Part shown: one piece after another, positions 6,356 to 31,888 of the stretch | Layout of the letters: each line of letters begins with the position of its first letter | Position numbering within the stretch: position 1 is the first letter of the stretch | From: Candidatus Scalindua sp. | GTDB lineage: Bacteria; Planctomycetota; Brocadiia; Brocadiales; Scalinduaceae | Direction of reading: 5' to 3' | Assembly (NCBI GenBank): GCA_031316235.1 | Contig: JALDRA010000001.1 | Coordinates: 570,001-602,000 of the forward strand | Length of the DNA: 32,000 nucleotides | The notes under the pieces: generated by a model | The model's input: the letters and a program-made list of their open reading frames with translations, nothing else | The model's database searches: none | Told to the model about the DNA's origin: nothing | Made by a program: the position numbers and the translations under genes

Positions 6356-6367
6356 CGGTCAGATCAA

Positions 6368-6485
6368 TATATACTCATCTCATAATGGTTTTCGGATAAA
6401 ATCCGAGATAAAATTGAGCGAGTATACCTTCACCAAGATTTGGTTTCCGATAAAACCGAAAATCAAATCGGTTTTAGTATATATA
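6368..6485. repeat. Composite palindromic REP/MITE-like element, copy A (two sub-units)
   Basis: tatatactcatctcataatggttttcggataaaatccgagataaaattgagcgagtatac + cttcaccaagatttggtttccgataaaaccgaaaatcaaatcggttttagtatatata. The ends are inverted (tatatact...agtatata). The right half recurs at 13676..13726. Both ends recur, joined, in reverse orientation at 20577..20636. The element lies between the convergent stops at 6355 (+) and 6515 (-). Confidence 0.8.
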
Positions 6486-6514
6486 CCCAAATCCTATGCA
6501 TCAATTTAGTGGCC

Positions 6515-10414: not shown

Positions 10415-10467
10415 TTTATTTTTTTTTACCCCCTCTAGAAAAACAACGATAGATGTGAGTTTAATGT

Positions 10468-16528: not shown

Positions 16529-19393
16529 TTATTTCAGTAACAGGTTCAAGTTTTTCTCGTTGTGTGCGCTCTTTTGTCTCCAATCTGCGTTACTCCACAC
16601 AACAAGATCGGCAATTTCTCCCTCGAAATACCTATCATTTGCCAATGACTGTTTACCAATAGAAAGCGGAATTGATCCGAAATTAAAAGGATCTGTCTTA
16701 TTCTCCCCTGCTAATGCACCATTAAGAAAGACCTTCATCTCCCCATGTTCAGCATCAATTATTAAGAGAACATGGCTCCATTTGTTCAGCTTGAGCTTGA
16801 AGGGTATTGGAATTCCATTACAGACAAAGACCCAGTCTTCTCTTGCTAGATTTCTGGGATCAGCAGACTGCAAAACAAAATTTTGAGTAGCGGTATGTCC
16901 ATTATCAAGAATTGTCGAAAGCCCATCATTTTCCTTTTCACCTGGTTTTACCCGTAAGGAAATCACAACACCTTCCCATTGCCGAAAGTTAATGTGAGGA
17001 CGGGCGAAGGAACTCCTACCATTAAAACTGAATGTTTCCCCATATTCACCATCAAATGTTTGAAGATCCAGAAACAGATCATTCTCCCGTCCCTTGTTTA
17101 AGAATTCTGTTTCCAGTTTCCAGGTCGCAAGCGATTCCTTCGATTTTATCGTATTGTATATTTTCTCAGGAGTACTTGTCCATACGATGTTGGGCATGCT
17201 CTCAGGTTTAAAAAGAGCATACGTGAGATAAAAACCTCCAAAGATGAATACGGGAATAAAGAAAACAATTAATGATTCAGAAGAGTGTGAAACAACTCTT
17301 CTCCATAATCGACTTGCCTGAAATGCAACCGTAACTAAGAAAAATATGATCACCCCGGCTATACCGGAAAAATAGAACCACAAAGAGAGGAGGTACTTTC
17401 CTGGTTTAAAAACAAACTCAACCGTATGATCCCCTCTGCTTAAGAACACCGCTTTCTGATTATAATTTGCCTGAAACACTTTTTCTTTCACACCGTCTAC
17501 AATACATTTCCAGGCTGGATGATAACCGTCTCTGAAAAGGAGAAATCCTTCACCAGAAACCTTCACGTTCAGCTCTATGTCGTGGGGTTTATAGCTGGTT
17601 ACTTCACAAGACCATTCAGGAGCAACTCTTTGCTCATATTTTTTTTTTGGTACATCTCCTTTTTCGTGAATGATAATCGAATGCTCCAATGCTTCCAAAA
17701 GTATCTCATCACTCTTTCCATTTAAAATTTCATCACTGGGCAAGTACATATATTCAGGAAAAAAAGAAAAAACTGGAAGATTTACTCCAAGCAGGACTTC
17801 CTTGAGATCTTGTGATGCCTCTGAGGCAAGGATTTGGTAGTATAGGATAGGATAAGTAATCGAGGTTGGAGGCAACCTCTGGATTAATTCATAGTCATCA
17901 TTATCTTCAAAATCCGTTGCAACAGGAGATTTTAAGACCAAGGAACTATAATTCATATTGAAGCTATGAGGATCGCCCTGATAAAGCGGCGGTACAGATT
18001 TGATTCTACTTTTAATATGAAAAGTAGAATCTGTTTCAAAATTGGAAAATTTATCAGGATCAGTTATTTTCTTTAAACACGCTAGGGTTTTATCACTATA
18101 TATTTGATAATCATAGATAGTTAATTCAATAAGTGTAAAGATAAACAGGATGGGAACAATCCATGCACGCCCTGTTTTTTGTATGATAAGCTGAAGACCC
18201 AGAAGGAAAAAGAAAAAATAAGAAAACAGAAAATAACTCGCAAATAAAGAAGTATTCTCAACTACTCTTAAGAGAGGGAACAGAATGAACAATATTTGAT
18301 AAAGATAATTGTATTTTACAGGACCGATGAAGAGAACGACGCTGAGTATTAACAAAACAATAAATACTTTCTTATACGAATGTTTCCCCAAAATGATCCC
18401 TATCAAACCTGTCAGAAAGGGAATTGCAGAGATGTACATATTCATTTCTGACAGTTTGAAGACGTTCTGAAAAACTGATCCCGAATAGATCTGTCTTGCC
18501 AAAGGAAAAAATCCAAGCGAGAGTATATCTCCGATTTTTCCTCTGGAGCCTAATCCTTCCACAAGATTGTTAAAACCCAGGAGGATTTGTGTTTCTCCTG
18601 TACGAGAAAAAAGCATGCGAGAATAGCTGTAAAAATCATTTGTATAAAATATTAAACTCCATGCCGGGGATGAAAAGATCAGAAATAAAAGAGACGTGCA
18701 CACAATTTTCAGCTTATTATTGAGAAGCACCCTGAATTTGTCGCGATTAAAGAGTAGAAATGTTACGGCAAAGAGAAAGAGAAAAGTACCTATGTAACCA
18801 AAAGGTTGACCCTGAGCAGAAATTCCCGAAAAGAATCCGAGAAATACAACGTTGAACCAGTCACTTCGATCAAGAAAACGCAAAAAAAAGTATAAGGTAA
18901 AAGGAAAATAATGGAAGGCGATATAACCTGTTTGGTGGTAACCACTAACAGTAAATGAAGATAAAAGTACAACAAAGAAAAGGAAATAAGAATATCTCCT
19001 TAATTCCGGGAAAACCCTGTTAAAAAACAGGAGAATACCGAAAGCAATTGTGAATGTTCTGAAGAAGACGTAAAGCTCATACTGGTAAAACAGGTTATTT
19101 ATGTGAAGCAGCCTGCCAAAGTATGCACAAAAGATAGTGATAGGATCAATAAGTGATAATTGGCTTAAGAGTTGGAAAAATATTTCACCGGCATGAGAGT
19201 AGGGATTCCACAAAGGGACAAAACCATTATAAAGCGACTCTATACAATAATGATAGAGAGGGTGCCAGTAAAAGGCGTCATGCCCAAAGACAAACTGTTT
19301 GGATATTATTGGCCAAACTGAAAAAAACCATGTGATAAGACCGACGGCAAACCATGTCAGCCAATGGGAAATAATTATTTTATAGCTTTTCAT
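16529..19393 (-). CDS. YfhO-like membrane glycosyltransferase fused to a C-terminal LamG/concanavalin-A-like lectin domain
   Basis: 954 aa with an ATG start. HDAFYWHPLYHY...NGFVPLWNPYSHAGEIFF. The YfhO-type end module is FLLFRDGYHPAWKCIVDGVKEKVFQANYNQKAVFLSRGDHTVEFVFKP plus a TM helix. An extra TM helix and ~226 aa follow, containing WSHVLLIIDAEHGEMKVFLNGALAG...RYFEGEIADLVVWSNA (LamG-type F-x-G-x-I-D-x-V pattern). Confidence 0.8.
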   Translation of the reverse strand: MKSYKIIISHWLTWFAVGLITWFFSVWPIISKQFVFGHDAFYWHPLYHYCIESLYNGFVPLWNPYSHAGEIFFQLLSQLSLIDPITIFCAYFGRLLHINNLFYQYELYVFFRTFTIAFGILLFFNRVFPELRRYSYFLFFVVLLSSFTVSGYHQTGYIAFHYFPFTLYFFLRFLDRSDWFNVVFLGFFSGISAQGQPFGYIGTFLFLFAVTFLLFNRDKFRVLLNNKLKIVCTSLLFLIFSSPAWSLIFYTNDFYSYSRMLFSRTGETQILLGFNNLVEGLGSRGKIGDILSLGFFPLARQIYSGSVFQNVFKLSEMNMYISAIPFLTGLIGIILGKHSYKKVFIVLLILSVVLFIGPVKYNYLYQILFILFPLLRVVENTSLFASYFLFSYFFFFLLGLQLIIQKTGRAWIVPILFIFTLIELTIYDYQIYSDKTLACLKKITDPDKFSNFETDSTFHIKSRIKSVPPLYQGDPHSFNMNYSSLVLKSPVATDFEDNDDYELIQRLPPTSITYPILYYQILASEASQDLKEVLLGVNLPVFSFFPEYMYLPSDEILNGKSDEILLEALEHSIIIHEKGDVPKKKYEQRVAPEWSCEVTSYKPHDIELNVKVSGEGFLLFRDGYHPAWKCIVDGVKEKVFQANYNQKAVFLSRGDHTVEFVFKPGKYLLSLWFYFSGIAGVIIFFLVTVAFQASRLWRRVVSHSSESLIVFFIPVFIFGGFYLTYALFKPESMPNIVWTSTPEKIYNTIKSKESLATWKLETEFLNKGRENDLFLDLQTFDGEYGETFSFNGRSSFARPHINFRQWEGVVISLRVKPGEKENDGLSTILDNGHTATQNFVLQSADPRNLAREDWVFVCNGIPIPFKLKLNKWSHVLLIIDAEHGEMKVFLNGALAGENKTDPFNFGSIPLSIGKQSLANDRYFEGEIADLVVWSNADWRQKSAHNEKNLNLLLK

Positions 19394-19415: not shown

Positions 19416-20348
19416 TCATTCAGTTTCTCCTTTTTGCGCAACAAGAACCATTTCGTTAGTTGGAGACTTAATGCTTAAATCAGGGAATAGTTTGTAAATT
19501 AAACTGGATAACGGTTTCACAGAGGACAAAAATGGGAGATTTGACAATACTTGAAAAATCTCAAAAACATAATAATGACTAAAATACGACTGGTTAATCA
19601 ACGTCTTAAAACCCATTCTCTTAAGCAGAACTGGTAGATTATGATGATTAAAATAATAAAAATGTTCCGGAGGTTTGATTAAATAAAAAGGAATTGATGA
19701 TTTTGTATCCAAGGTCGTTATCATGAGTAGACCTTCAGGTTTTAAGATTCTATTGATTTCAACAAGCATCTCTCTCGGATTAATTACATGCTCAATGGTT
19801 CCAAGAAGGAAAACAATATCGAAATAGTTATTCTCGAAATGAAACTGGTCATGTTTTTCCTGAAAGAAGATGTTCTTCAGCCCTAGATTTTCAGTCGCAT
19901 ACTGTATTGCCCACTCACTAAATTCTACACCATAAACATCACACTTCTTCAACTTTTTTATCTCATCAATATAAAACCCGCATGCACAACCAATGTCTAG
20001 GACCCGTAAAAAATCAATCTTTTTTACTTTACTGATAATATCAATATTGTTTCTGGAATTTTTTCGATAGTTCTTTTCATTGCCAACATAATTTTTGAAT
20101 CCAGTCCTTTTTACATAAAAATTTGTATAATAGTTGCTGCTATAAAATGACTTCAATTTTTTCTCATTGATAGCATCCCCTACCCAGATCAATTTGCATG
20201 TTTTACATTTATACACGGAGAAACCATGTACTTTTTTAAAAAAGAAGATCTTTCCAGAGTTACATACATAACACTGGGTTATTCTTTCTTTATTATCAAT
20301 AAGATGAGAATAATCGGTATTTTCAGATTCCTTGGTCATGCAATACAC
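19416..20348 (-). CDS. Class I SAM-dependent methyltransferase with an N-terminal Cys4 zinc ribbon
   Basis: The longest ORF starts at GTG 20348. ATG 20339 (MTKESEN...) is the likely start. The ribbon is CYVCNSGK...YKCKTCKLIW. Motif I is VLDIGCACGFY. Also present: FDIVFLLGTIEHV and LKPEGLLMITT. Confidence 0.8.
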   Translation of the reverse strand: MYCMTKESENTDYSHLIDNKERITQCYVCNSGKIFFFKKVHGFSVYKCKTCKLIWVGDAINEKKLKSFYSSNYYTNFYVKRTGFKNYVGNEKNYRKNSRNNIDIISKVKKIDFLRVLDIGCACGFYIDEIKKLKKCDVYGVEFSEWAIQYATENLGLKNIFFQEKHDQFHFENNYFDIVFLLGTIEHVINPREMLVEINRILKPEGLLMITTLDTKSSIPFYLIKPPEHFYYFNHHNLPVLLKRMGFKTLINQSYFSHYYVFEIFQVLSNLPFLSSVKPLSSLIYKLFPDLSIKSPTNEMVLVAQKGETE

Positions 20349-20576: not shown

Positions 20577-20636
20577 TATATACTAAAACCGATTTGGTTT
20601 TCGGTTTTACCGGAAACCAATATGAGATGAGTATAC
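20577..20636. repeat. REP/MITE-like element, copy C (60 bp, inverted orientation)
   Basis: tatatactaaaaccgatttggttttcggttttaccggaaaccaatatgagatgagtatac. Its reverse complement joins the left end of copy A (gtatactcatctcata) to the right half of copy A (ggtttccggtaaaaccgaaaaccaaatcggttttagtatata). It lies in the 328-bp gap between the two zinc-ribbon methyltransferase genes. Confidence 0.8.
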
Positions 20637-20676
20637 AATAAAAGAACCACAATCAGGTTTTAACAGATTGTGGCAA

Positions 20677-21630
20677 CTATTCCTTTTTAGCATGAACATT
20701 TAGGGAATCAAAGGAATTAGTAATCCACATATAAAATAATAACGGTGAAGCGATGATTCTACTGACAATGTCAGCAAAGTAAATTTTAGCATACCCGGTG
20801 GAAACCATAGATTTTGAGAGGGTGCCAATTCTTTGCCTGCAAGCAACTGCAAAAAATGTTCGGACAATATCTGCCGGGAGTGCACCTGCAGTTGAAACAA
20901 TCTCGGTACGAACCGAGCAATTTTCAAAACCCGCTTTCTTTAACATATACGTCATCGACTGTTTCGTAAAATAGTGAATATGACTTGGGGGAAGAATCCA
21001 GTACCATCTTTCTTTTGACAGACTCCCAAAAAAACCTTTATAATTTGGAACAGAAAGAAAGACCTCGCCTCCTTTTACTATGTTTTTATAGATTTTCGAT
21101 ACTATTTTGAGAGGATCTTTACAATGCTCCAAAGAATGGTAGCAATAGACAAAGTCAAAAGGCGCGTTAGGATACTCCTCCATTTCTCCTGCATCTCCAG
21201 CATAAAGATTTATTCCCAACCTTTTTCTTCCTTCATCAACTATTTGTTGTGAAATATCTATCCCTGTGAGGTTTGTGAATTCGTAAAAGTCTCTCAAAAG
21301 GGCCAAAAAACATCCTGGCCCGCTACCGACTTCTAAGAATTTCAATGAACTGCTTTGTAATGACTTAAATTTAAAAATCTGTTTCAGGCGGCGTAGATAA
21401 AACTGATGAAAAGTATCTTTTCCTCCCAGATAATCTTCGATATTCCTAAAGGCATTTGCATTGCCAATGGTATCGCTCTGTTGAGAATAGTACTTGTGGA
21501 TATCCTCATCTGATGGGATCGGGTACAACTGCCGATGGGAACAGGTCCCACAGCGATATATATCGTACCCATCATACGAAAGTTCTCTTTCCTCAAGATC
21601 ACCTTCACAAACTGAACACTCTCTTTTCAC
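20677..21630 (-). CDS. Class I SAM-dependent methyltransferase with an N-terminal Cys4 zinc ribbon (paralogous architecture to 19416..20348)
   Basis: The GTG start at 21630 overlaps the upstream stop (GTGA, 4-nt overlap). No alternative ATG lies before the ribbon CSVCEG...YRCGTCSH. Motif I is FLEVGSGPGCF. Also present: FDFVYCYHSLEHC and VKGGEVFLSVPN. Confidence 0.8.
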   Translation of the reverse strand: MKRECSVCEGDLEERELSYDGYDIYRCGTCSHRQLYPIPSDEDIHKYYSQQSDTIGNANAFRNIEDYLGGKDTFHQFYLRRLKQIFKFKSLQSSSLKFLEVGSGPGCFLALLRDFYEFTNLTGIDISQQIVDEGRKRLGINLYAGDAGEMEEYPNAPFDFVYCYHSLEHCKDPLKIVSKIYKNIVKGGEVFLSVPNYKGFFGSLSKERWYWILPPSHIHYFTKQSMTYMLKKAGFENCSVRTEIVSTAGALPADIVRTFFAVACRQRIGTLSKSMVSTGYAKIYFADIVSRIIASPLLFYMWITNSFDSLNVHAKKE

Positions 21631-22670
21631 TGTATCAATTCTCTATATTTAACAGGGTTTACGGGAAAGGAAGATGATGGTTTAAGAATTTTCTCCTGAT
21701 ACTCCTTATCCCATGATACCACGCATCTTGGATACTTTCTATTTTTATGGTAATACGAGCATTCGTTGTGGATGAATCTCCAGATATCTTCCAGTGGTTC
21801 TTTCCTGATATTACCAAAAGAGATCGGGTTAATAGCACATGTTTGAACATCTCCGTAAGGAGAAATACATAATTTTTCAGTACCTCCAGGACAGCCAACG
21901 CCTTTAAAGGTATGGCTGAAGTCAGTTCTCAATACATTGAAATTTTTCCTGAGTATTTCCCATTCCTCTTCACCTAAACATTCATCATACACCTCTTTAC
22001 CGCGTCCGGTGGGGCTATACGTTGAACATCCCAATAAAATCCCTTTCGATCGGGTAAAAGCAAGCATTCTTTCAAACATCTTCATTGATGATTTGCACAG
22101 AGTAAAAGAAATCTCCACGATTATATTGTGCTTCTCACATAACTCTATTACCTTTAAGGTTCGTTCAAATGATCCTTTTCCCCTTATTTTATCATTTTCT
22201 TTCTCGTTATCGGCATCCAGGCTTATACACATATTGAAAAGCTTCACCCTGGACAGATCTTTGATTAATTTTTCATTTACATTAACGCCGTTTGTAACAA
22301 TAGAAATCAAATATTTTTCCGGTTCAAATACAGAAATAATATCGAATAAATCCCCGCGCAATGTAGGTTCTCCACCAATTATATGAACTCCAAAAGCACC
22401 CAGTTTCTTTGCCTGTCTCCAAAGGTCTCTATATTCCTCAACACTCATAATCTTCTCATTAGGCTGAATATACTTGGAAGCATAGCATACTTCACAGGAA
22501 ATATTACAGTGCGGAGTAATATTCAACTCAAGAGAACGGAGAAATGGTTTATTCAAAAGCCCCCTCATTACATAGCCGCGAAAAACACCGTATAAGCTTC
22601 TGGGCTTTTTTGCAAAACGTGGAAGGAGTAATAGTTTCTGCTTAATATTATTGTCTTTTAAAAAATTCAT
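21627..22670 (-). CDS. Radical SAM enzyme with a SPASM/twitch-type C-terminal Cys-rich domain
   Basis: ATG start. The rSAM cluster is ITPHCNISCEVCYA. GGEPTLR is present. The C-terminal region GVGCPGGTEKLCISPYGDVQTCAINP...YPRCV fits the SPASM pattern C-x-G-G-...-I-x-P-x-G-D-V-x-x-C. Confidence 0.8.
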   Translation of the reverse strand: MNFLKDNNIKQKLLLLPRFAKKPRSLYGVFRGYVMRGLLNKPFLRSLELNITPHCNISCEVCYASKYIQPNEKIMSVEEYRDLWRQAKKLGAFGVHIIGGEPTLRGDLFDIISVFEPEKYLISIVTNGVNVNEKLIKDLSRVKLFNMCISLDADNEKENDKIRGKGSFERTLKVIELCEKHNIIVEISFTLCKSSMKMFERMLAFTRSKGILLGCSTYSPTGRGKEVYDECLGEEEWEILRKNFNVLRTDFSHTFKGVGCPGGTEKLCISPYGDVQTCAINPISFGNIRKEPLEDIWRFIHNECSYYHKNRKYPRCVVSWDKEYQEKILKPSSSFPVNPVKYRELIQ

Positions 22671-22672
22671 TT

Positions 22673-23200
22673 TTATTCCGTTTCAGTTCGTTTTCCGAGA
22701 AGGAGCAGTTTCAACATAATAATCGTCTTTGCAATTAAGAGCATAAGGGGTTTCCCGATGTAGTATCTATCGTTCCGATACACAATTTGCCCCTTACTGA
22801 TCATCCGCTGAAGTCGGAGGTCAATAATGTTCGAGGCATTATAACGCTCAAGCAGATCCTCTATTGAAAGACCGTTCTGTGATTCAAAGAGCTCTCGGAC
22901 TATGCGGATACGCCTAGCAGTCTCTCCGAGATTAATAAAGTTAAAATAGCAGTAAGCCAATCCGACATAGGCAATCAAGTTTACGACTATCTGACACACC
23001 ATTTCCAGGGTGGATACACTTCTGGAGGTAAAATAGGCAACCTCTATGAGAAATAAACCTGAAAGACCGCAGAGAAATCCGACAATAACAGACTTGAACA
23101 ATCCACACTTTGCAATATATCTACAGACAAAAAGCTGAGAAATACTGTTTAATAATAACCCCAATAGAGGAGAAATGATATGAAGAAGAAATATGACCAC
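22673..23200 (-). CDS. Small membrane protein of unknown family (3 N-terminal TM helices + soluble module + C-terminal hydrophobic helix), paralog of 23208..23792
   Basis: GTG start at 23200 with GGGAGGA ~10 nt upstream. It lies 7 nt after the upstream stop and ends 2 nt before the rSAM/SPASM start. The soluble part RRIRIVRELFESQNGLSIEDLLERYNASNIIDLRLQRMISKGQIVYRNDRYYIGKP looks winged-helix-like. Confidence 0.6.
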   Translation of the reverse strand: MVIFLLHIISPLLGLLLNSISQLFVCRYIAKCGLFKSVIVGFLCGLSGLFLIEVAYFTSRSVSTLEMVCQIVVNLIAYVGLAYCYFNFINLGETARRIRIVRELFESQNGLSIEDLLERYNASNIIDLRLQRMISKGQIVYRNDRYYIGKPLMLLIAKTIIMLKLLLLGKRTETE

Positions 23201-23207
23201 GAACGGA

Positions 23208-23792
23208 TTATCCTCCCTTCCCGACTCTCATCAGATTACGATAAAAGGTAATTATGCACGCCATGAAGATCCCCTTTGCCTTGAGTCGGTATTTCCCCCC
23301 AGACAATTGCGCAATTTTATGAGTAATAAGATCATTCAATCGTGGTTTTACGAGAATACTATCGTCCATCTGTTCTCCCATTGTCTCTCTGCTTAAACCG
23401 GCTCCACTTGCTTTGGATATTTTCTCAACGATAAGAAGAGAAGGGCTATCTACTTCAATGGCTGAATAGGTATTTATGTAAGCTAATGTTAAAATCCCAT
23501 AGTATTGCCAGATTTGAAAATGTTCAAAAATTGTAACCGGAGTATGGATAGCAAATAGAGCAATAGCATCAGGATAAAGGAAAAAAAATGTGGAACCGGA
23601 AGCAAGTACTACAAAAAAAATGAGACATAAGATTTTCGTCTGTCTCTTTGGAAGACGAATCCTCCATAAAACGAAATGCATTATTAAGGCAATTACAAAT
23701 AGAGTTGATCCATAAAACAAAATAGTCATTATTCTTTGTTTACTGTGGTCACGTATGATATCGTTAGCAACTAAATTAAAATGAAAAGCCAC
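23208..23792 (-). CDS. Small membrane protein of unknown family (4 TM helices + soluble module + C-terminal hydrophobic helix), paralog of 22673..23200
   Basis: GTG start at 23792 (GGAGAG immediately upstream), or an internal ATG at MTILFYG. The soluble part SLLIVEKISKASGAGLSRETMGEQMDDSILVKPRLNDLITHKIAQLSGGKYRLKAKG aligns with the neighbour's soluble part (shared IV-[RE]-[EK], GLS, RL, [KR]-Y positions). Confidence 0.6.
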   Translation of the reverse strand: MAFHFNLVANDIIRDHSKQRIMTILFYGSTLFVIALIMHFVLWRIRLPKRQTKILCLIFFVVLASGSTFFFLYPDAIALFAIHTPVTIFEHFQIWQYYGILTLAYINTYSAIEVDSPSLLIVEKISKASGAGLSRETMGEQMDDSILVKPRLNDLITHKIAQLSGGKYRLKAKGIFMACIITFYRNLMRVGKGG

Positions 23793-23843
23793 CTCTCCGA
23801 GTAATCGTAATTATATCTTTACAATAGTAGAAGCTAACAATCA

Positions 23844-24635
23844 TCATATAGTAGCTTCAACATTTTCCAGTTCGATTGTCATCCACATGGCAAGATAATG
23901 GTATAAAGGCCTAAGCAATAATTCAAAAGTCTTAAAGAAAGGATAAGCAAACCCCGGCAGGAACGTATTAAAGGCCCCTGCACCACTGAGCTGAAATGTT
24001 ATCGGATTGTGGGTTTCAATTTTTTTTATCCGCAGGTTGGGATATTTCGACTCAAAAACTTTTCGATCTCTCATAAAAATTATCCAGGGAAGAGCTATGT
24101 TAGCATCCGCAAGATGTTTCTCCCCTGAAATCTTCCAACCCGATTCCGGATCAAAGGGTTCATGGTGCGATATCCGATACATTACCCTTGCAAAGGGGCT
24201 GTTAAAGGGCTCTATCATTACAACTTTGCCACCTGGAACCAATGCCTTTTGCACATCCTTAAAAAACAGATCGACATTTTTTATATGATGTAAAACACCT
24301 GTCATAAAAAAAACTGAAACAGTATTGTCCTTTAGCGGTAAATGTTCAGCAGAAAAACGCAGATCAATATTAAAATTCGTATTTATATCAGAACAGATCA
24401 AATCCATACGAGAAAACTCCTTTAAAAAGCCATATCCAGTACCTAATTCAACCATTTTTCCATCAGGAGCACTCGTTGCTGCATTCATAAATACTTTATA
24501 AAAATCTTCGTATACCCTCCTTACAAATCCGTGATTTTTCACATTATAATGCATCAATGGCATAATCTCCGGATTGTCATAACTCATATTTTTAATATTG
24601 GAATACTTTAAATGGGTAAGTAATTGTTTAATCAT
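23844..24635 (-). CDS. Class I SAM-dependent methyltransferase
   Basis: ATG start. Motif I is MVELGTGYGF. Also present: FFMTGVLHHI and LVPGGKVVMIEP. No zinc ribbon. Confidence 0.75.
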   Translation of the reverse strand: MIKQLLTHLKYSNIKNMSYDNPEIMPLMHYNVKNHGFVRRVYEDFYKVFMNAATSAPDGKMVELGTGYGFLKEFSRMDLICSDINTNFNIDLRFSAEHLPLKDNTVSVFFMTGVLHHIKNVDLFFKDVQKALVPGGKVVMIEPFNSPFARVMYRISHHEPFDPESGWKISGEKHLADANIALPWIIFMRDRKVFESKYPNLRIKKIETHNPITFQLSGAGAFNTFLPGFAYPFFKTFELLLRPLYHYLAMWMTIELENVEATI

Positions 24636-24716
24636 ATTTTACTGTAATTTTCCTCAACCGTTACCTCAAAAATTATCTAGTAAATTCCTTTTGTTTCAGA
24701 ACATTTACCATCGCAT

Positions 24717-25793
24717 TCATATAAAGTTAGTATGTAAGGGTGGGTGTTTTATCATCCATAACGACTCGTTAATAGCGTTTTCCTTACATCCACTGTAACA
24801 CTCCTCGTGTACATTCAAATTTTGAATTCTCTTAACCGCCTCCAGATATCTATCACTATAAAATATATCTTTAAAAGATTCTTCAATAATATTACCAATT
24901 GCAAATTCTTCGCTTCTCCAGTCGAAAAACTGCGCACATGGATATATAGTTCCATTACCAGACATTCTTAACATAAAATTACCAGCACAATAACAGACAT
25001 CATAATCCCTTTCTCTCCCTTTTAATATTTTACTCCACCTCACTACTACATCAAACGTGTCTGTTGCATACTCCTCAGCCTCTTTCAATTGATCTACCAC
25101 TTTCTGGTAGTCATCATGTTTGACACCCAAATCTCCTTGAAAATTATCACTGCAATGCTTTATTTCCAGGTAGTCAACCCCAAGATCTCTACCAAGTTTT
25201 GCTAATTTTTTGGCTTCCTCAGCATACCAAGGCATGGTAACCATTTGCAGACCTACTGTAAGAGGTAAATTATCTTGCTTTCTTATCTTTACGAACGCTT
25301 CTATGTTTTTTACCACTTTATTGAAATTATCTTCACGTGTTTTATGAATTTTCCTATAACTATTTTCATCTCCGGCACTGATATTAAATCTTATCCATAC
25401 TAAGTTGTTCGCTAAATCCGGAATTCTCTCTTCTCCTAGTCTCCCCCCCCACGTTGCAAGTCCCATACTTAACCCACATCTGTTTCCTTCAACAACAGCG
25501 TCATACACTGCAGGATTCATTGTGGGTTCAGCTTCTCCCGTAATTGAAATAGCCTTAACCCCTAACTCCGCAGCGTCCCTCAGGAACCTCAAAAGAGGTT
25601 CTTTTGGTATGTTAAAGCCACTCGGACCTATTCTTCCCTGCAAGGCACCATAGCAATAAACACACGCAATATCACACCCTTTGGATATTCCTATATCCAT
25701 ATGTAACGGGACGATTCTTTCCCCCTTTACCCACGATTCAACTCTATCCAGATGCCACCAAAGCTTGTGCCCTTCCATCCGATACTTATCCAT
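24717..25793 (-). CDS. Radical SAM enzyme with a C-terminal auxiliary Cys-rich (twitch-like) region; paralog of 28793..29860
   Basis: ATG start. MDKYRMEGHKLWWHLDRVESW... The rSAM cluster is SKGCDIACVYCYG. The C-terminal region is CYCAGNFMLRMSGNGTIYPC...ECYSGC, ending HPPLHTNFI. It is collinear with the 355-aa ORF over its full length. Confidence 0.8.
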   Translation of the reverse strand: MDKYRMEGHKLWWHLDRVESWVKGERIVPLHMDIGISKGCDIACVYCYGALQGRIGPSGFNIPKEPLLRFLRDAAELGVKAISITGEAEPTMNPAVYDAVVEGNRCGLSMGLATWGGRLGEERIPDLANNLVWIRFNISAGDENSYRKIHKTREDNFNKVVKNIEAFVKIRKQDNLPLTVGLQMVTMPWYAEEAKKLAKLGRDLGVDYLEIKHCSDNFQGDLGVKHDDYQKVVDQLKEAEEYATDTFDVVVRWSKILKGRERDYDVCYCAGNFMLRMSGNGTIYPCAQFFDWRSEEFAIGNIIEESFKDIFYSDRYLEAVKRIQNLNVHEECYSGCKENAINESLWMIKHPPLHTNFI

Positions 25794-25872: not shown

Positions 25873-26646
25873 TCACCAATCTACCTCTATATATCCAGAG
25901 GGGACGCTATGCCAGGTAAATTTCTTAATTTTTGGTTTTGAGCCGAAAGTTTTTTGGAAATAATCATCTATCGCCTTTGTCTCTCCGCCGAAAAGATCCA
26001 GAGCATATTCATCGGCAATGATTATTCCTCCATGCACCATTAAAGGAACAAATTTCTCTAAAGCAATTTTTGTAGGCTCATAAAGATCAAAGTCAATATT
26101 TAAGAGAGCAATCCTCAATCCATGCCCTTTCGATTCAACAAATGCAGGGATAGTTTTTAAAGCATCTCCTTTAATAAACTCTATTCTTTTGAGATGCCTG
26201 ATATGCTTATCAGCCGTCATCGCCTTTTGGGCTAAATCCATATCTCTTTCGACTGTAGTACCACCTGAAAAACCTCCCACTTTTCTCCCTCGTTCCAACT
26301 CTTCGCCTCCATCTTCTTCGGCTATGTGAGGAAAGCCCTCAAATGTATCAAAACCGTAAACAACCTTTCTGACGTCTGTAGGGCAAAATATTTCACATAG
26401 TTTTGCCCAAGTGAATGTAGATGCTCCTCTGAAAACACCGAGATCAACAATTACACCGGGCAGATTGCATATCTTCTTAAATAATTCATAATGCGTGAGA
26501 AACCTTGCAATGTTGTATCGAGGCGTATACACTGGGAAATTCCTGAACATCTCAAATGGAGAAAGCTCAGTTTTTCCGAAAAGTTCTTCCAGAATTCCCC
26601 TTTGTTGCTTTTCATTTTCATGCCGTAAAGATATATCGTCTGACAT
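25873..26646 (-). CDS. TylF/MycF/NovP-family (macrocin-type) SAM-dependent O-methyltransferase
   Basis: ATG start with AAGGGGA upstream. Family motifs: VIVDLGVFRGAST, GFDTFEGFP, NIDFDLYEPT (the metal-binding D-x-D-x-Y-x-x-T), GGIIIADEY. Confidence 0.8.
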   Translation of the reverse strand: MSDDISLRHENEKQQRGILEELFGKTELSPFEMFRNFPVYTPRYNIARFLTHYELFKKICNLPGVIVDLGVFRGASTFTWAKLCEIFCPTDVRKVVYGFDTFEGFPHIAEEDGGEELERGRKVGGFSGGTTVERDMDLAQKAMTADKHIRHLKRIEFIKGDALKTIPAFVESKGHGLRIALLNIDFDLYEPTKIALEKFVPLMVHGGIIIADEYALDLFGGETKAIDDYFQKTFGSKPKIKKFTWHSVPSGYIEVDW

Positions 26647-26748
26647 TCACTATTCCCCTTAATATGTGCTACAACCGTATATTATATAGAATCACTTTCT
26701 GTAAAAACTTCACCATTTAGAAAAGTAATAACATTTCCCTTATCATCT

Positions 26749-27654
26749 TCATATACATGTCTCTATTCTCTCTCTTATGTCACTGGAAGAAAAACCATAA
26801 TGCTCTCTCATACCGTTTATATTTTTGATAACATGAATAAATTCATTGGTAATTCCCATTTTCTCCAAACGATATGGACATCTCTCTTTTGTGATCCACT
26901 CTGAAATAATACCACCTAAACTTCCATCCTTAAAATTCTCCTCAACCGTTATCAGGGTATGAACGGTATCGGAAAGAATTTCTCCAAGAAATGACGTATC
27001 GAGAGGCTGAATCATAGGAACAGATATGAGCATTGGGGAGGGTTCCATCCCATCAGTTGCTTTGACAACCTCAATAGACACCGAGCCATGAAATAGGATT
27101 GCGACGTCTTTCCCCTTCTTAACGACAATCGGCCTGCTTATGTCATTCGGTGCATTTGTATGAATCACCGGTTCACCGCTTTTGGGTATCCTTATATAGG
27201 TAGGATTTTTACTTTTGTATGCATGTTCAATACAGAGCTCTGCTTCAAGAGGATCAGATGGCGACATAATTTCCATGTTTGGTAAAGTCCTCGCTAACAG
27301 CAGATCCTCCACCCCGTAATGAGTCACACCGCCTGGGGCATATGTCACTCCGCTGCCAATTCCTAATAATGTTACAGGAACCCGCTGATAACAAATATCG
27401 TTTCTGACCTGTTCATAACAGCGGTATAAGAGAAAGGGTATTATGTTGTAAACAAATACTTTATATCCAGACAACCCGAGACCTGCAGCAAAACTTATCA
27501 TATTTTGTTCAGCCACACCCATATTTAAGAACCTCTTGGGAAATTGCTCCCGATAATTTTCCCATACACCAAAACCTGCATCTCCTACAATCAAAAAAAC
27601 ATTCTTATCTTTGTTCGCAAATTCACAGATTTTCGTTGAAACACTATTTCTCAA
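26749..27654 (-). CDS. Transketolase, C-terminal (pyrimidine-binding + C-terminal domain) subunit
   Basis: GVAEQNMISFAAGLGLSGYKVFVYNIIPFL, GIGSGVTYAPGGVTHYGVEDLLLARTLPNMEIMSPSDPLE. The start must be TTG 27654 (AAGGA 9 nt upstream, 11 nt after the N-subunit stop). The next in-frame Met is already inside the conserved domain. Confidence 0.9.
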   Translation of the reverse strand: MRNSVSTKICEFANKDKNVFLIVGDAGFGVWENYREQFPKRFLNMGVAEQNMISFAAGLGLSGYKVFVYNIIPFLLYRCYEQVRNDICYQRVPVTLLGIGSGVTYAPGGVTHYGVEDLLLARTLPNMEIMSPSDPLEAELCIEHAYKSKNPTYIRIPKSGEPVIHTNAPNDISRPIVVKKGKDVAILFHGSVSIEVVKATDGMEPSPMLISVPMIQPLDTSFLGEILSDTVHTLITVEENFKDGSLGGIISEWITKERCPYRLEKMGITNEFIHVIKNINGMREHYGFSSSDIRERIETCI

Positions 27655-27665
27655 TTATTTTTTCC

Positions 27666-28475
27666 TTATTCTTGATGTAATTCCTTAAAAGCCTGCTCTT
27701 TAAACTCATCAGTGACTACATAATAATGCCATTTCATTTCGTCTTCCATAAATGAAATACCCTGGCCCTTCTTGGTATCAGCAATAAATATTTTTGGTTT
27801 CTCATTTGTTGCTTTTTTAAAGGTTTGAATAATTTCCCCAAAGTTGTGACCATTCATTCGATGGACCTCCCAACCGAAGGCCTCCCATTTATCTACAATC
27901 GGTTCGTATGAACACAACTCACTGGGTCGTCCATAACCCTGTAAATCATTACGGTCCATAATTGCTGTAAAATTGTTGAGACCTAACTTAGGAGCAAACA
28001 TAGCCCCCTCCCATATCGCCCCCTCCTGCGACTCACCATCCCCAATGATAGAAAATACTTTCCTTTTATCTCCTTTTAGTTTCAATCCATAGGCAATCCC
28101 CAACGCAATGTTGAATCCATGCCCCAGAGAACCTGCTGAAACTTCGATCCATTTATTGGTAAATTTATCAAGATGTGCTGGTAATGTCCCATCGTTTTGG
28201 AAGTATCCAAAAAATGTATCTTTATCCATTAACTTTTTGTGAGTTAACATTGCATACAGGGCCATTGCCCCATGAGCTTTGCTTAGCACGAATATATCCC
28301 TCATTGGAAAATTTTCTTCATTGATATTTAGCTCATGGTAATAGAGATATACCAATAAATCAACGCAAGAGAGCGAGGAACCGACATGGGCACTTTTTGA
28401 TTTATTCGCAACATCAATTACCAATTTCCTTACCTCTCGGGATATTTCTTTCAATTTATTTTCTAACTTATCCAT
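27666..28475 (-). CDS. Transketolase, N-terminal (thiamine-diphosphate-binding) subunit
   Basis: ATG start. SAHVGSSLSCVDLLVYLY, LSKAHGAMALYA, GSLGHGFNIALGIA, IIGDGESQEGAIWEGAMFA (G-D-G ThDP motif). Confidence 0.9.
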   Translation of the reverse strand: MDKLENKLKEISREVRKLVIDVANKSKSAHVGSSLSCVDLLVYLYYHELNINEENFPMRDIFVLSKAHGAMALYAMLTHKKLMDKDTFFGYFQNDGTLPAHLDKFTNKWIEVSAGSLGHGFNIALGIAYGLKLKGDKRKVFSIIGDGESQEGAIWEGAMFAPKLGLNNFTAIMDRNDLQGYGRPSELCSYEPIVDKWEAFGWEVHRMNGHNFGEIIQTFKKATNEKPKIFIADTKKGQGISFMEDEMKWHYYVVTDEFKEQAFKELHQE

Positions 28476-28529
28476 TTTTTCTCAATCTTTTCTTGTCAAT
28501 CGAGTTAGTGCCCCCAGCACAACTCTTTC

Positions 28530-28573
28530 AAAATGGCTACAACTACTTCCCTGTAGTTGCTTCACGCCATTTT
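28530..28573. other. Nested hairpin inside the 317-bp gap between the rSAM and transketolase genes
   Basis: The outer stem is aaaatggc (28530..28537) / gccatttt (28566..28573). The inner stem is caactac (28540..28546) / gtagttg (28553..28559) with loop ttccct. On the minus strand the structure ends in TTTT, so it could terminate or attenuate read-through from 28793..29860. Confidence 0.35.
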
Positions 28574-28792
28574 AAGTATGTGCTAATGCGCAAAATTAAT
28601 GTAGCAGATTCATTTATTCACATTTGAAAATGATAAAACTACTTGTTTTTTGTTAAACAATGGTTATTACTTCTAAAAAGAAACTCGTATAATCAATAGG
28701 CATTTTGGATTATCAAGCATTGTTCCCCTTTTTCCTGAGCATAATCATTAAGCATTTTTCTTTACCACACCCAAAGTGTGGAAAAACAGTCT

Positions 28793-29860
28793 CTAAATAA
28801 AATTAACATGTTCTGGAGGATATTTTAATTCCCAAAGATACTTATTTACCTCGTCCATCCTGCAGTTAATTCTACAACAACCGGCATCAAACTCATGCTC
28901 TACCCACTTTAATGACTCAAGCCTTCTCTCTCCCTCCCAGATTTCCCGAAAACTGCTCTCGTTTATATTGCCATAGTAGAACCTCTCATCCCCGAGATAT
29001 ACACTGCAACCCCAGACATTGCCACCAGCATCCAGATATGACCAGAAAGGAAGTGCGATACAACGATTATAATTTCTTCCGGCTTGGTCCCACTTTTTCA
29101 TAGTCTGTATCCTGAAAATAACACTAAAGGTACTCGTATTAATTCTTTCTAGGGAATCGGCAAGACCAAGATAATCACTGTATTTAATAGATTTGTATTT
29201 GTCAGTCTTGCTTAATGGGTGTTGTGAATAAGGTTTTATTACGAGATAATCCATTCCGATGTCGCGGGCCAACTCTGCAAGAAGTACGGCTTCATGCTGA
29301 TTTTCTGGCAGTAATAAGAGTTGCATACCCAATGCACACTTACACGCACTCTCTTTCCTCATTTTTACTGCATATGTCATATTTTTTATTACGGTCTCAA
29401 AATCATCAATCTTGGAGCGATGGATCTTAGCATACGTCTCTTTCGTTGCCCCATTAATACTAACCTTGATCCATTCTGTATGTGGGAGAATTTTTTCCAC
29501 GAGAGATTTGCGCAGAAAAACCCCATTGGTAGTAATGCCGACATCAATCCCCGATATCTTTGTGTGACCAATAATCTCTGCAATATCTTTATGTAAAAAA
29601 GGTTCCCCCTCACCAGCAAACATCACGCTTTTCAATCCTAGTTCTCCCATTTCGGAGAGCTTCTCTTTTAATATACTGGTATCCAGGTACCTCTTCTTAT
29701 ATTCCATAAAATCCAGGGCACAGTAACTACAACGATGGTTACACGTTCCTGAAGGACTTATCTCCATATAAATTGGGTAAATTATTTCACCGTCCAGCCA
29801 ATCGTTAACTCTTGGGACATGATAAAGAAGCTTATGGCTGTCTATTCTATATTTATCCAT
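28793..29860 (-). CDS. Radical SAM enzyme with a C-terminal auxiliary Cys-rich (twitch-like) region; paralog of 24717..25793
   Basis: ATG start 1 nt after the upstream stop. MDKYRIDSHKLLYHVPRVNDW... The rSAM cluster is SGTCNHRCSYCA. The C-terminal region is CIALPFWSYLDAGGNVWGC...GCCRINC, ending YPPEHVNFI. Confidence 0.8.
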   Translation of the reverse strand: MDKYRIDSHKLLYHVPRVNDWLDGEIIYPIYMEISPSGTCNHRCSYCALDFMEYKKRYLDTSILKEKLSEMGELGLKSVMFAGEGEPFLHKDIAEIIGHTKISGIDVGITTNGVFLRKSLVEKILPHTEWIKVSINGATKETYAKIHRSKIDDFETVIKNMTYAVKMRKESACKCALGMQLLLLPENQHEAVLLAELARDIGMDYLVIKPYSQHPLSKTDKYKSIKYSDYLGLADSLERINTSTFSVIFRIQTMKKWDQAGRNYNRCIALPFWSYLDAGGNVWGCSVYLGDERFYYGNINESSFREIWEGERRLESLKWVEHEFDAGCCRINCRMDEVNKYLWELKYPPEHVNFI

Positions 29861-29861
29861 C

Positions 29862-31409
29862 TTATTTCAAAATTGTGTGCACAAAATCCAGCAGCTCATA
29901 TTTTTCCACAGACTTCTTGTTTCCTACAATCTGAACTGCCAGCGCCCCGACAGCATTTCCGATGAACGAGACAAGATCTAATGGATGGCCAATCGCAAAA
30001 CAGGGAGCGGTATATGCAAAAAACGCATCACCCGCACCTACTGTATCAATTACCTTTGATGAAAATATTGGAGTCCTGTTTGTTTCGCCTTTTCTATTAA
30101 TCCCGATTGAACCTCCCTTACCAAGCGTCGCAATAAGGTAATCAGAATTTATGGACTTTGAGATTTTTTTTATGACATCCTTAATATCAGTAAATTTTTC
30201 CTGAGCAGCCAACCTGATTTCAAGTTCATCCAGACAGACATAATTTGGATTATGATATTTTGTAATGAGATTGTAACCTACATTAGCCCCATTGGTCTGT
30301 GTATTAATACCAAATGTCTTTGAATGCTTTTCAATAATACTGAATATTTTTTCCGTTATAAATCCATGCCCGAAATCTGAAATCAATACTAAATCATAGT
30401 TTTCTATTTCAGACTCCAGATATTTAATGATCTCCATCTCAATACGGTTGTTGATGAAAGCATCTTCCAGATAATTGATTTCAAACAGCTTTTGGTTCAG
30501 ATAGGAGTGAATATACCTCTTCTTGACAATGGTTGGGCCATCTTCCCTGTAAAAGAACTGAGAACGGACGTTTGGTTTTAAGCTGTTTAATATGAAATCT
30601 TCTCTTGTATCTTCCCTGCCCAGCACTGTTACCAGTTGTATCTCTTCACAGAGACCTGCTATATGATTGGCAATTGCAAATACGCCTCCCGCAAAGATCT
30701 CATGGGTTAAATATTTATTTACGACAAGATTCGCCTTGGAAGACTTACCCATGGTCGCGACATAATGATATTCATCAATAATACCGTCTCCAAGGAGCAG
30801 GATTTTCATCTTTTTCAACTCATCCACTTTCTCCATGATATAATCGAAACTATACTTTTCTGAAAAGTCCTGTAAAAACTTCCTGGTCTCCTCGGGATAC
30901 ACATCGAGAAAATTATTGATAATCCGTGAAGAGCTAAAGGATATTCCCCCCGTCTCACAGATCCGGCCTTGTCCAAAATAAAATTTTTTCTCCTTCTCCA
31001 AATTTTTTTCGTAAATTCCGAGATCCTGAGCTCTTCTCTTATGTGACCTCCCCTTTGAAAACACATCGGGTTTTATCCTCTGTATGCATTCAAAAGGTGT
31101 CTCATCGTCAACCAGGCAGGTGAAATCAACCTGCTCGAGAGCAGCAACATTCTCCACTCTATAATTCTCCGGGAATATGGGTCTTCCCGGCCCTTTCCGC
31201 ACATCTTTATCCTTAATTACGGTAACTATCAAAACGTCACCCTCTCTCTTCGACATATTGAGATGTTTGATGATCCCTGGATGGATGAGGTCAAAAACGC
31301 CGTGAGTCTGAACCACAACTTTACCCTGCTGTTTCAGGTTTTCAACCTTCTCAATGAGTTTATCGAACAGTAATATCTTTCTTTCTATTGATCTGTTGGT
31401 CATTGGCAA
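29862..31409 (-). CDS. Bifunctional nucleotidyltransferase (RfaE domain II/cytidylyltransferase-like, N-terminal) + PfkB-family sugar kinase (RfaE domain I-like, C-terminal)
   Basis: The longest ORF starts at TTG 31409. ATG 31403 (MTNRSIE...) is likely. The N-terminal domain has THGVFDLIHPGIIKHL...DVLIVTVIKDKDVRKGPGRPIF...GGISFSSSRII. The C-terminal domain has KILLLGDGIIDEY...FAGGVFAIANH...DTVGAGDAFFA (PfkB signature). Confidence 0.8.
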   Translation of the reverse strand: MPMTNRSIERKILLFDKLIEKVENLKQQGKVVVQTHGVFDLIHPGIIKHLNMSKREGDVLIVTVIKDKDVRKGPGRPIFPENYRVENVAALEQVDFTCLVDDETPFECIQRIKPDVFSKGRSHKRRAQDLGIYEKNLEKEKKFYFGQGRICETGGISFSSSRIINNFLDVYPEETRKFLQDFSEKYSFDYIMEKVDELKKMKILLLGDGIIDEYHYVATMGKSSKANLVVNKYLTHEIFAGGVFAIANHIAGLCEEIQLVTVLGREDTREDFILNSLKPNVRSQFFYREDGPTIVKKRYIHSYLNQKLFEINYLEDAFINNRIEMEIIKYLESEIENYDLVLISDFGHGFITEKIFSIIEKHSKTFGINTQTNGANVGYNLITKYHNPNYVCLDELEIRLAAQEKFTDIKDVIKKISKSINSDYLIATLGKGGSIGINRKGETNRTPIFSSKVIDTVGAGDAFFAYTAPCFAIGHPLDLVSFIGNAVGALAVQIVGNKKSVEKYELLDFVHTILK

Positions 31410-31411
31410 AC

Positions 31412-31888
31412 CTATTTGATAAAATGTTGATTGAGAAGTTTTGTTGATGAAAAAACTATATCCTGGGTAAACTTGATTTCTATTCCTAATTCCCTCGTCA
31501 AGTTGTATTCCTTTTGAATCTTTCCCGTTTTATCCTGCAGATTCTGAAATTCCTGTCCCTTTACATAGATATCCGGGCATAATCGCCTCAGCGTATTTTC
31601 AGCGGTAGGCCATTTATTGACAGCCACGTAATCAACACACTCTAAAGCAGCAATTGAATCTGCCCTCAGCTCCTGGTTAAAGACCGGTCTGTCCGGCCCT
31701 TTGTCAACGTACACATCAGGGGTAACTGTTATTACGAGAACGTCCCCCATCTTTTTAGCCGACTGAAAATGTTTTATGTGTCCAGGATGCATGAGATCAA
31801 AACATCCATGACAGTGAACAATTATCTTTCCTTCATTCTTCAAAGCACGGATTTTTTGTTCTAATTCATCAAATTCAAGAATCTTCAC
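31412..31888 (-). CDS. Stand-alone RfaE domain II/cytidylyltransferase-like nucleotidyltransferase
   Basis: GTG start at 31888 with GAGAGAGG 8 nt upstream; no alternative Met precedes the active-site motif. CHGCFDLMHPGHIKHF (intact HxGH), DVLVITVTPDVYVDKGPDRPVF, IVFSSTKLL. Confidence 0.8.
   Translation of the reverse strand: MKILEFDELEQKIRALKNEGKIIVHCHGCFDLMHPGHIKHFQSAKKMGDVLVITVTPDVYVDKGPDRPVFNQELRADSIAALECVDYVAVNKWPTAENTLRRLCPDIYVKGQEFQNLQDKTGKIQKEYNLTRELGIEIKFTQDIVFSSTKLLNQHFIK

Follow-up and report, generated by a model that had tools for sequence, protein, structure and literature searches.

Introduction

Three-component systems that glycosylate through a lipid-linked sugar, with flippases of varied types and with further enzymes that act on the lipid-linked sugar itself, are documented in bacteria, and the assignment of GtrA, ArnE/F and MATE proteins as flippases in such systems is still mostly inferential (PMC11127046). 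We compare the systems GtrA/GtrB/GtrC, CsbB/GtcA/YfhO, ArnC/ArnE-F/ArnT and Citrobacter youngae ORF15/14/12 (PMC11127046) with a gene cluster of Candidatus Scalindua sp., which lies in a stretch of 32,000 nucleotides (contig JALDRA010000001.1, positions 570,001 to 602,000). We call this whole stretch the window and give all positions in its own numbering. Our subject is two small membrane proteins, TM173 and TM175, which are encoded in a six-gene block just upstream of a radical S-adenosylmethionine (SAM) enzyme of 347 amino acids, rSAM347. A preliminary description of this DNA had grouped rSAM347 and the two membrane proteins into a single functional unit. We find instead that TM173 and TM175 are a widespread, uncharacterised paralogous membrane pair in a recognisable type of pathway, and that the triad with rSAM347 is not conserved. 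We see about an even chance that the pair serves as the membrane subunit, whether anchor, flippase or both, in a lipid-linked glycosylation route of three-component-like design, with rSAM347 and the methyltransferase gene that follows it forming a separate cassette.

Several properties of known proteins frame the comparison. ArnC, GtrB and the archaeal dolichol-phosphate mannose synthase (DPMS) are membrane-anchored. In the eukaryotic synthase DPM1/DPM2/DPM3, a catalytic family 2 glycosyltransferase (GT2) without transmembrane (TM) helices is joined by two small membrane anchors, DPM2 and DPM3, each with 2 TM helices and lacking a winged helix. ArnE and ArnF are 4-TM proteins of the SMR/DMT fold without soluble domains. 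To our knowledge, no flippase for eukaryotic Dol-P-Man or Dol-P-Glc has been identified so far.

The cluster in the window resembles the three-component systems in that its GT2 enzyme, GT2_320, has ArnC, DPMS and GtrB as its best full-length solved relatives, and in that YfhO-type and other large polytopic proteins, small membrane proteins and sugar-tailoring enzymes are encoded together. It departs from them in its small membrane proteins, which bear no detectable resemblance to GtrA, SMR/EamA or MATE flippases and are paralogous to each other with winged-helix domains; in GT2_320, which lacks the TM hairpin of GtrB and ArnC; and in the split transketolase and the several radical SAM and B12-radical SAM enzymes that clusters of this type encode. 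With DPM1/2/3 the cluster shares, by analogy only, a TM-less polyprenyl-phosphate-type GT2 and two small membrane proteins that could anchor it; unlike DPM2 and DPM3, with which they have no sequence or fold homology, TM173 and TM175 have 3 TM helices and a winged helix. The likeness to ArnE/ArnF lies in two adjacent, overlapping, paralogous genes for small membrane proteins in a lipid-linked sugar pathway; here again the 3 TM helices and winged helix of each Scalindua protein set them apart, and homology is not detected.

Results

A six-gene block on the minus strand

The block consists of the following features, listed in the direction of transcription.

24717-25793, minus strand: rSAM358, radical SAM enzyme of 358 amino acids (Pfam Radical_SAM and SPASM)
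23844-24635, minus strand: MT263, methyltransferase of 263 amino acids (Pfam Methyltransf_11)
23208-23729 (probable; the open reading frame, ORF, extends to a GTG at 23792 and has 194 amino acids), minus strand: TM173, membrane protein, no family
22673-23200, minus strand: TM175, membrane protein of 175 amino acids, no family
21627-22670, minus strand: rSAM347, radical SAM enzyme of 347 amino acids (Pfam Radical_SAM and partial SPASM)
20677-21630, minus strand: MT317, class I SAM methyltransferase with zinc ribbon, 317 amino acids (Pfam Methyltransf_23/11/25)
about 20636-20674, minus strand: hairpin and T-rich tract (RNA folding)

The six ORFs, their order, strand and lengths agree with what had been described, as does the zinc ribbon of MT317, which appears as an N-terminal CxxC...CxxC. 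Sequence searches find homologues elsewhere for each of the six, so none is a chance ORF. The junctions from rSAM358 to MT317 measure 81, 51, 7 and 2 nt, and the last two genes share 4 nt (GTGA), in agreement with the earlier values. In a 25-member alignment the TM173 family begins at an invariant Met, which is M22 of the 194-aa ORF (ATG at 23729), and the TM173 gene of a close relative, locus L108, likewise encodes 173 amino acids. Translation of TM173 most likely starts at M22, and with this start the gap between MT263 and TM173 is probably 114 nt, not 51.

Directly 3' of MT317, RNA folding finds a 9-bp hairpin and T-rich tract (-12.1 kcal/mol, z = -3.67) with a loop of 11 nt, on account of which a consensus terminator scanner overlooked it. 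This hairpin is probably an intrinsic terminator at which the transcription unit ends. A second zinc-ribbon methyltransferase (MT310, CxxC...CxxC, 19416-20348) lies past the hairpin, after a gap of 328 nt. Scanning the window for Rfam families and for tRNA genes gave no matches.

TM173 and TM175 are a paralogous pair found across phyla

In TM173, three TM helices are combined with a winged-helix-like domain, and the C-terminus is an amphipathic helix that ends in KGG; its family carries the motifs W-x-I-R-L-P-K-R-Q-T-K after TM1, TYSAxE(A/V)DSPSL at the end of TM3, and PRxxDL. For TM175, an AlphaFold2 model (predicted local distance difference test, pLDDT, of 82.7) and hydropathy together give three TM helices and, beyond them, a winged helix with a further helix at the C-terminus. 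In the model TM3 runs out of the membrane into a domain that DSSP assigns as helix-helix-helix-beta-hairpin, after which the C-terminal helix follows. An invariant motif, Y(C/G)YF(H/N)FxNLGETARRxR, marks the end of TM3 in TM175, and it is at the end of TM3 that both membrane proteins are most conserved. Invariant residues include E93, R96, R97 and R99 of TM175 and E113, S116 and P117 of TM173 (ORF numbering). The single-sequence structure model of TM173, with a pLDDT of 50, is unusable.

Profile-profile alignment with hhalign relates the two proteins at E 4.7e-8 over 133 columns, and at E 2.3e-5 in a second comparison; by this sequence measure they are distant paralogues. From the positive-inside rule, both would be N-out with the winged helix in the cytosol, and the shared topology would imply a parallel heterodimer.

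How widespread is this pair? A word-indexed search gives 173 matches to the TM175 family, and an exhaustive search gives 1,759 representatives at 50% clustering (E<=1e-3), almost all of them stand-alone proteins of about 175 amino acids. Scanning genomes with TM175 yields 80 loci that span Omnitrophota, Nitrospirota, Desulfobacterota and Planctomycetota (including Brocadiales and Scalindua) and reach into Elusimicrobiota, Verrucomicrobiota, one genome of the candidate phyla radiation and one Woesearchaeote archaeon; isolates are represented, for example Nitrospina sp. 32_T5 (L028) and Desulfococcaceae HSG9 (L080). A homologue of TM173 sits immediately upstream on the same strand, at a median gap of about 0 nt, in 63 of the 69 loci in which a TM175 ORF was called. 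Neither protein has a family model in Pfam or NCBIfam. Searches of the PDB with the TM175 family by sequence and profile find nothing at E<=10, a Foldseek search of the PDB with the TM175 model finds nothing at E<1, and in the literature we found general papers on three-component systems and no description of the pair.

Two apparent leads on the family were rejected. A PAP2_3 match to the 194-aa ORF (E 2e-4, below the cut-off) is shared by 1 of 25 members and begins in the over-extended N-terminus. A 336-aa fusion member, P0286, which might have served as a Rosetta-stone clue, has a C-terminal half that resembles an unrelated YraN-type nuclease and is probably read-through from a neighbouring gene.

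The modelled winged-helix topology of the soluble domain brings to mind a different role, that of a membrane-tethered winged-helix regulator or sensor which controls expression of the glycan cluster, and weak fold matches to Crp/PrfA, DtxR, IclR and MarR regulators point the same way. Every one of these Foldseek matches has E>1, however, other weak fold hits are winged-helix dimerisation domains of methyltransferases, and there is no Pfam helix-turn-helix match. The peak of conservation at the end of TM3, and not in the putative recognition helix, and the position of the genes in mid-operon, where nearly every locus has them in translational coupling with enzyme genes on both sides, also argue against a regulator, and we consider one improbable.

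rSAM347 is not a conserved partner of the pair

In the model of the preliminary description, rSAM347 works in a membrane-tethered complex with both membrane proteins on a substrate presented at the membrane. The junctions of 7 and 2 nt and the 4-nt overlap are indeed consistent with co-translation of these genes here. To survey genome neighbourhoods we use the 34 pair loci with full context, meaning at least 4.5 kb on both sides. None of them (0/34) has an rSAM347 orthologue in the 4.5 kb to either side of the pair, and the pair in turn occurs in none of about 12 distinct loci with an rSAM347 homologue (29-68% identity). Locus L108, the closest relative available, shows where the association ends. 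Eight genes, from rSAM355 (described below) through TM175, follow there in the same order as in the window at 80-94% amino-acid identity, and synteny stops exactly at the TM175/rSAM347 junction, beyond which L108 continues with two GT2 genes and other radical SAM genes; its best match to rSAM347 is 27% identical and 8.5 kb away. The closest homologue of rSAM347, at 68% identity, follows a YfhO-like gene.

Because synteny breaks at this point in L108 and reciprocal co-occurrence is absent, the TM175/rSAM347 junction, for all its 2-nt spacing here, is where a conserved module gives way to a variable tailoring cassette. A complex of rSAM347 with the two membrane proteins is thus very improbable, and the triad is largely refuted by the condition that the preliminary description itself had set, conservation in other genomes. 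What does hold from that proposal is the setting, a membrane-linked glycan context with a polyprenyl-phosphate-type GT2 and YfhO-like proteins, in which rSAM347 is not the partner of the pair.

Genes that recur beside the pair

If rSAM347 is not the partner, which genes do recur? Within 4.5 kb of the pair, the same 34 loci contain an rSAM358/355-type gene in 24 cases (immediately upstream in 13), a GT2_320 orthologue in 18 (with a different GT2 present in 8 of the rest), a transketolase in 17, and a B12-radical SAM gene in 14 (immediately upstream in 4, immediately downstream in 7). The commonest gene order is TKn-TKc-GT2_320-rSAM358-TM173-TM175. The two membrane proteins can be called an undescribed conserved unit, as had been suspected of the triad, and the recurrent partners of that unit are GT2_320, the rSAM358 family and B12-radical SAM enzymes. 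In 26 of 37 loci the surroundings of the pair also encode large polytopic proteins, defined by a length of 400 aa or more and 7 or more hydrophobic segments; their median distance from it is 1.2 kb, and those checked are YfhO, DUF2079 or unclassified.

Recognised flippases are missing from this neighbourhood. None of the window ORFs scanned has a Pfam match to GtrA (PF04138), SMR/EamA or MATE, and no GtrA-type flippase appears among these ORFs. The 80 loci have nine further small polytopic ORFs, and these too include no GtrA-type protein and give one sub-threshold EamA match only.

Two of the window's own genes for radical SAM enzymes, outside the six-gene block, have relatives among these neighbours.

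28793-29860, minus strand: rSAM355, a paralogue of rSAM358 (32% identical)
2506-4017, minus strand: B12rSAM503 (Pfam B12-binding and Radical_SAM)

rSAM355 and rSAM358 have in common an MDKYR...HKL motif in the N-terminal part and end alike in a PP(E/L)H(V/T)NFI tail. Orthologues of rSAM355 are highly conserved across phyla (E about 1e-157) and stand alongside an HldE-like gene and a split transketolase, and the rSAM358 family has 2,071 homologues at E<=1e-30, some of them in places without the pair. In rSAM358 the CX3CX2C motif (invariant C40/C44/C47) is accompanied by four invariant C-terminal Cys (C267, C286, C332, C336), a set that fits a single, twitch-like auxiliary cluster. MT263, which separates rSAM358 from the pair in the window and is 89% identical in L108, is a lineage-specific insertion, for in most other loci no gene stands between rSAM358 (or GT2_320) and the pair.

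B12rSAM503 lies 19 kb from the pair in the window, unlike its orthologues in many other genomes (about 1e-106 to 1e-124), which directly adjoin the pair in L013, L017, L018, L020, L021, L023, L026, L032, L044, L070 and others. Its conservation is extreme, with E 4e-238 in a Brocadiales metagenome-assembled genome (L012) and 4e-231 in Scalindua (L035).

These associations raise the possibility of an adaptor role in radical SAM chemistry, in which the pair binds a polyprenyl-phosphate-sugar at the inner leaflet and, through its winged helices, recruits soluble rSAM358- and/or B12rSAM503-type enzymes that modify the sugar in its lipid-linked state. This would transfer the idea of the preliminary description to other radical SAM enzymes. 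Of the 34 loci, 30 have a radical SAM gene of some type at no more than 4.5 kb from the pair, with the rSAM358/355 and B12-radical SAM types often immediately next to it as counted above; the partial NCBIfam matches of B12rSAM503 include the lipid-acting HpnJ, HpnR and ladderane-type B12-radical SAM enzymes (BchE and ApyD score higher); and enzymes that act on polyprenyl-phosphate-sugars are known, for example the DprE1/E2-type epimerases (PMC11127046). Proximity is weak evidence where clusters are rich in radical SAM genes in general, and the matches to lipid-acting radical SAM families are all far under the family cut-offs. Furthermore, Geotalea daltonii and two metagenome contexts have relatives of rSAM358 beside nucleotide-sugar genes without the pair, which suggests that the substrates are soluble nucleotide-sugars. 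We therefore hold the adaptor role to be unlikely.

We also sampled four contexts from the side of rSAM358. The pair, in a divergent form (177/178 aa), is found only in the one that also has a short GT2; the other three (Geotalea daltonii FRC-32, a TARA contig and a JGI contig) have neither short GT2 nor pair. These three contain heptose-type HldE-like, SIS, HAD, transaldolase, transketolase and epimerase genes, with a GT9 gene in Geotalea.

The Geotalea locus (L106, CP001390.1 727662-748753), from a cultured organism, is in itself a related radical-SAM-rich cluster without the membrane pair. It encodes five radical SAM enzymes and a B12-radical SAM enzyme, GT9, a split transketolase, methyltransferases, a NUDIX protein and a carbamoyltransferase.

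rSAM347 and MT317 as a proposed tailoring cassette

We now turn to the radical SAM enzyme on the far side of the module boundary. rSAM347 has a Radical_SAM domain (PF04055; E 7e-22, and 4e-16 for rSAM358) with an invariant CX3CX2C (C55/C59/C62). The full SPASM assignment that it had been given does not withstand inspection: its Pfam SPASM match spans only model positions 1-44 of 67, its family has three invariant C-terminal Cys and no more (C260, C278, C316), and the seven-Cys SPASM motif (including CX2CX5CX3C, for two auxiliary 4Fe-4S clusters) is found in neither rSAM347 nor rSAM358. The three Cys and the partial match point to one auxiliary cluster in rSAM347, twitch-like rather than 7-Cys SPASM. 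In having CX3CX2C, a single C-terminal set of 3-4 Cys and a place in sugar-tailoring clusters, these enzymes resemble BtrN and MoaA, twitch radical SAM enzymes whose substrates are sugars and small molecules (compare DesII and BlsE). Unlike BtrN and MoaA, rSAM347 and rSAM358 reach no curated family cut-off, and their best sub-threshold NCBIfam matches are partial (WgkB, AhbD, NirJ2, MoaA, TIGR04317).

A SPASM assignment would also point to a peptide substrate. One reading would make the block a system for modifying a peptide of the ribosomally synthesized and post-translationally modified (RiPP) kind, with a SPASM maturase, methyltransferases and membrane proteins for export or immunity. It could draw on the Pfam SPASM matches of rSAM347 and rSAM358 and on the peptide maturases WgkB, PqqE and MftC among their best sub-threshold NCBIfam matches, although these maturase matches are all far under the family cut-offs and each enzyme has a single auxiliary-cluster set of Cys. 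An ORF search of the intergenic gaps finds no credible small precursor-peptide ORF, the window holds no plausible precursor ORF, protease or ABC exporter, and the surrounding genes are all sugar or glycan enzymes. The step from SPASM to peptide is weak given a twitch-like domain without precursor-like ORF or peptide-processing gene, and we regard a RiPP-like system as extremely improbable.

The rSAM347 family is rare, with about 25 proteins at E<1e-34. Its loci recurrently have zinc-ribbon methyltransferases or a B12-radical SAM enzyme immediately downstream of the rSAM347 homologue, in glycan clusters rich in GT9, transketolase and radical SAM genes. In the locus of the closest homologue (L009, E 2e-167) the next genes encode MT317 (E 2e-144), MT310 (E 1e-111) and YfhO, and the C-terminus of a YfhO-like protein precedes the rSAM347-MT317-MT310 block where the window has the membrane pair, which L009 lacks. 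MT317 is thus the conserved partner of rSAM347 in that locus; a PDB search with MT317 returns generic methyltransferases only. Taken together, rSAM347 and MT317 look like a swappable, lineage-specific tailoring cassette, and, given the synteny of MT310 with both in L009, the cassette may be three genes long.

The glycosyltransferase and the surrounding glycan cluster

The remaining genes of the cluster that matter for the argument are listed here.

12684-13460, minus strand: GT2_320, a polyprenyl-phosphate glycosyltransferase-like GT2
13738-16494, minus strand: YfhO918 (Pfam YfhO at the C-terminus only, E 1.4e-10)
16529-19393, minus strand: Big954 (C-terminal Laminin_G_3; about 12 TM segments, no GT-C Pfam match)
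25873-26646, minus strand: TylF-type methyltransferase (Pfam/NCBIfam)
26749-27654 and 27666-28475, minus strand: split transketolase (Pfam/NCBIfam)
29862-31409, minus strand: HldE-like nucleotidyltransferase/PfkB kinase (Pfam/NCBIfam)
31412-31888, minus strand: small nucleotidyltransferase (Pfam/NCBIfam)

GT2_320 has a probable start at M63, which gives about 258 amino acids. Its profile matches ArnC at 7e-16 and DPMS at 1e-15, in both cases along the whole catalytic length of about 205 positions, whereas the match to GtrB is confined to the N-terminal half. A TM helix is predicted in none of 35 orthologues (0/35), so that by sequence GT2_320 resembles the polyprenyl-phosphate glycosyltransferases and is itself TM-less. 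YfhO918 and Big954, with 12-13 hydrophobic segments each, are candidate periplasmic glycosyltransferases of the GT-C type.

The window as a whole is one large (about 30-kb) minus-strand glycan cluster. In the order of transcription come the HldE-like genes, rSAM355, the split transketolase, the TylF-type methyltransferase, the six-gene block and MT310, and then two large polytopic proteins, the GT2, two type I phosphodiesterase-family proteins, a sulfotransferase and a B12-radical SAM enzyme. The upstream sugar block (25873-31888) is syntenic in L108 at 89-94% identity, and its genes recur near rSAM358 homologues, where SIS/GmhA-like, HAD, transaldolase and epimerase genes join them.

Some details of the cluster stand apart from these questions. 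Between rSAM355 and the N-terminal half of the transketolase there is a non-coding gap of 317 nt (28476-28792) that measures about 55 nt in L108 (89-92% identical), so that the window has some 260 nt of extra DNA relative to L108; a CCACAC...GTGTGG hairpin directly follows the rSAM355 stop. At 8384-12603 lie tandem paralogues of 676 and 711 aa with an N-terminal TM helix and a C-terminal type I phosphodiesterase domain (PF01663), which may be transferases or hydrolases of phospho-substituents of an envelope glycan. At 4700-7120 there are a sulfatase (plus strand) and a sulfotransferase, and in another locus (L114, 7936-11697) a sulfotransferase and a fused protein with an ATP-sulfurylase domain are found beside an rSAM358 homologue. 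With sulfation genes recurring in the clusters, the glycan may be sulfated.

Discussion

How might the pair work as the membrane subunit of a lipid-linked glycosylation system? In the scheme we favour, the upstream genes would make and tailor a nucleotide-activated sugar, probably derived from heptose as judged from the HldE-like, SIS and transketolase gene content, and GT2_320 would move this sugar onto polyprenyl phosphate at the inner leaflet. Since GT2_320 has no membrane segment of its own, we propose the pair as its interface with membrane and lipid: a TM173/TM175 heterodimer would supply the membrane and lipid-phosphate surface on which the TM-less enzyme docks, with the strictly conserved, Arg-rich GETARRxR in one partner and the acidic/Ser-Pro motif ExDSPSL in the other, both at the end of TM3. 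The pair possibly also docks the soluble rSAM358 and B12-radical SAM tailoring enzymes, and it may translocate the polyprenyl-phosphate-sugar, filling the otherwise empty slot of GtrA or ArnE/F. YfhO-like proteins of the GT-C type would then pass the sugar to an envelope acceptor outside the membrane. In this scheme rSAM347 and MT317 would be one of several interchangeable tailoring pairs, which carries out a twitch-type radical step and then a methylation of the sugar, and which in this lineage came by chance to lie directly downstream of TM175.

Several observations weigh against this scheme. A GT2_320-like gene is absent within 8 kb of the pair in 10 of 33 full-context loci (about 30%), and in the window itself GT2_320 is 9 kb away; the link between pair and GT2 is for these reasons statistical, not obligate. 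In many loci without the GT2, a B12-radical SAM gene adjoins the pair instead. The neighbour statistics come from crude ORF calling and phmmer matches to the window's own proteins, the sample taken from the side of rSAM358 is four contexts only, and the Pfam check of large polytopic neighbours covers a few cases only. Searches by PDB sequence, by fold and in Pfam detect no homology of the pair to a known flippase or to DPM2/3, and a winged-helix domain would be unusual for a flippase or an anchor. Gene structure, paralogy, modelled fold, the conservation and co-location of the pair, the lack of conservation of the triad and the TM-less character of GT2_320 are what the analysis shows; the heterodimer, its topology, its role as anchor or flippase and the nature of the sugar are inferred.

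A stronger form of the proposal is that TM173 and TM175 are a new and widespread heterodimeric machinery for polyprenyl-phosphate-sugars, either a new type of flippase or obligate subunits in the manner of DPM synthase, whose winged helices recruit a soluble glycosyltransferase and radical SAM enzymes. We offer this tentatively, as possible while falling short of an even chance.

The case carries a caution for annotation, since close spacing of genes is not enough by itself to delimit a functional unit: the 7/2/4-nt spacing that had suggested one is consistent with co-translation in this genome, while in L108 synteny stops at the second of these junctions. The Geotalea daltonii cluster could offer a tractable system in which to study the soluble steps of the pathway. 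More broadly, the pair marks a large class of radical-SAM-rich surface-glycan clusters. It stands next to a TM-less polyprenyl-phosphate-type GT2 in many uncultured phyla, and, with the membrane partners and flippases for polyprenyl-phosphate monosaccharides being poorly defined, it is a testable candidate for the missing function.

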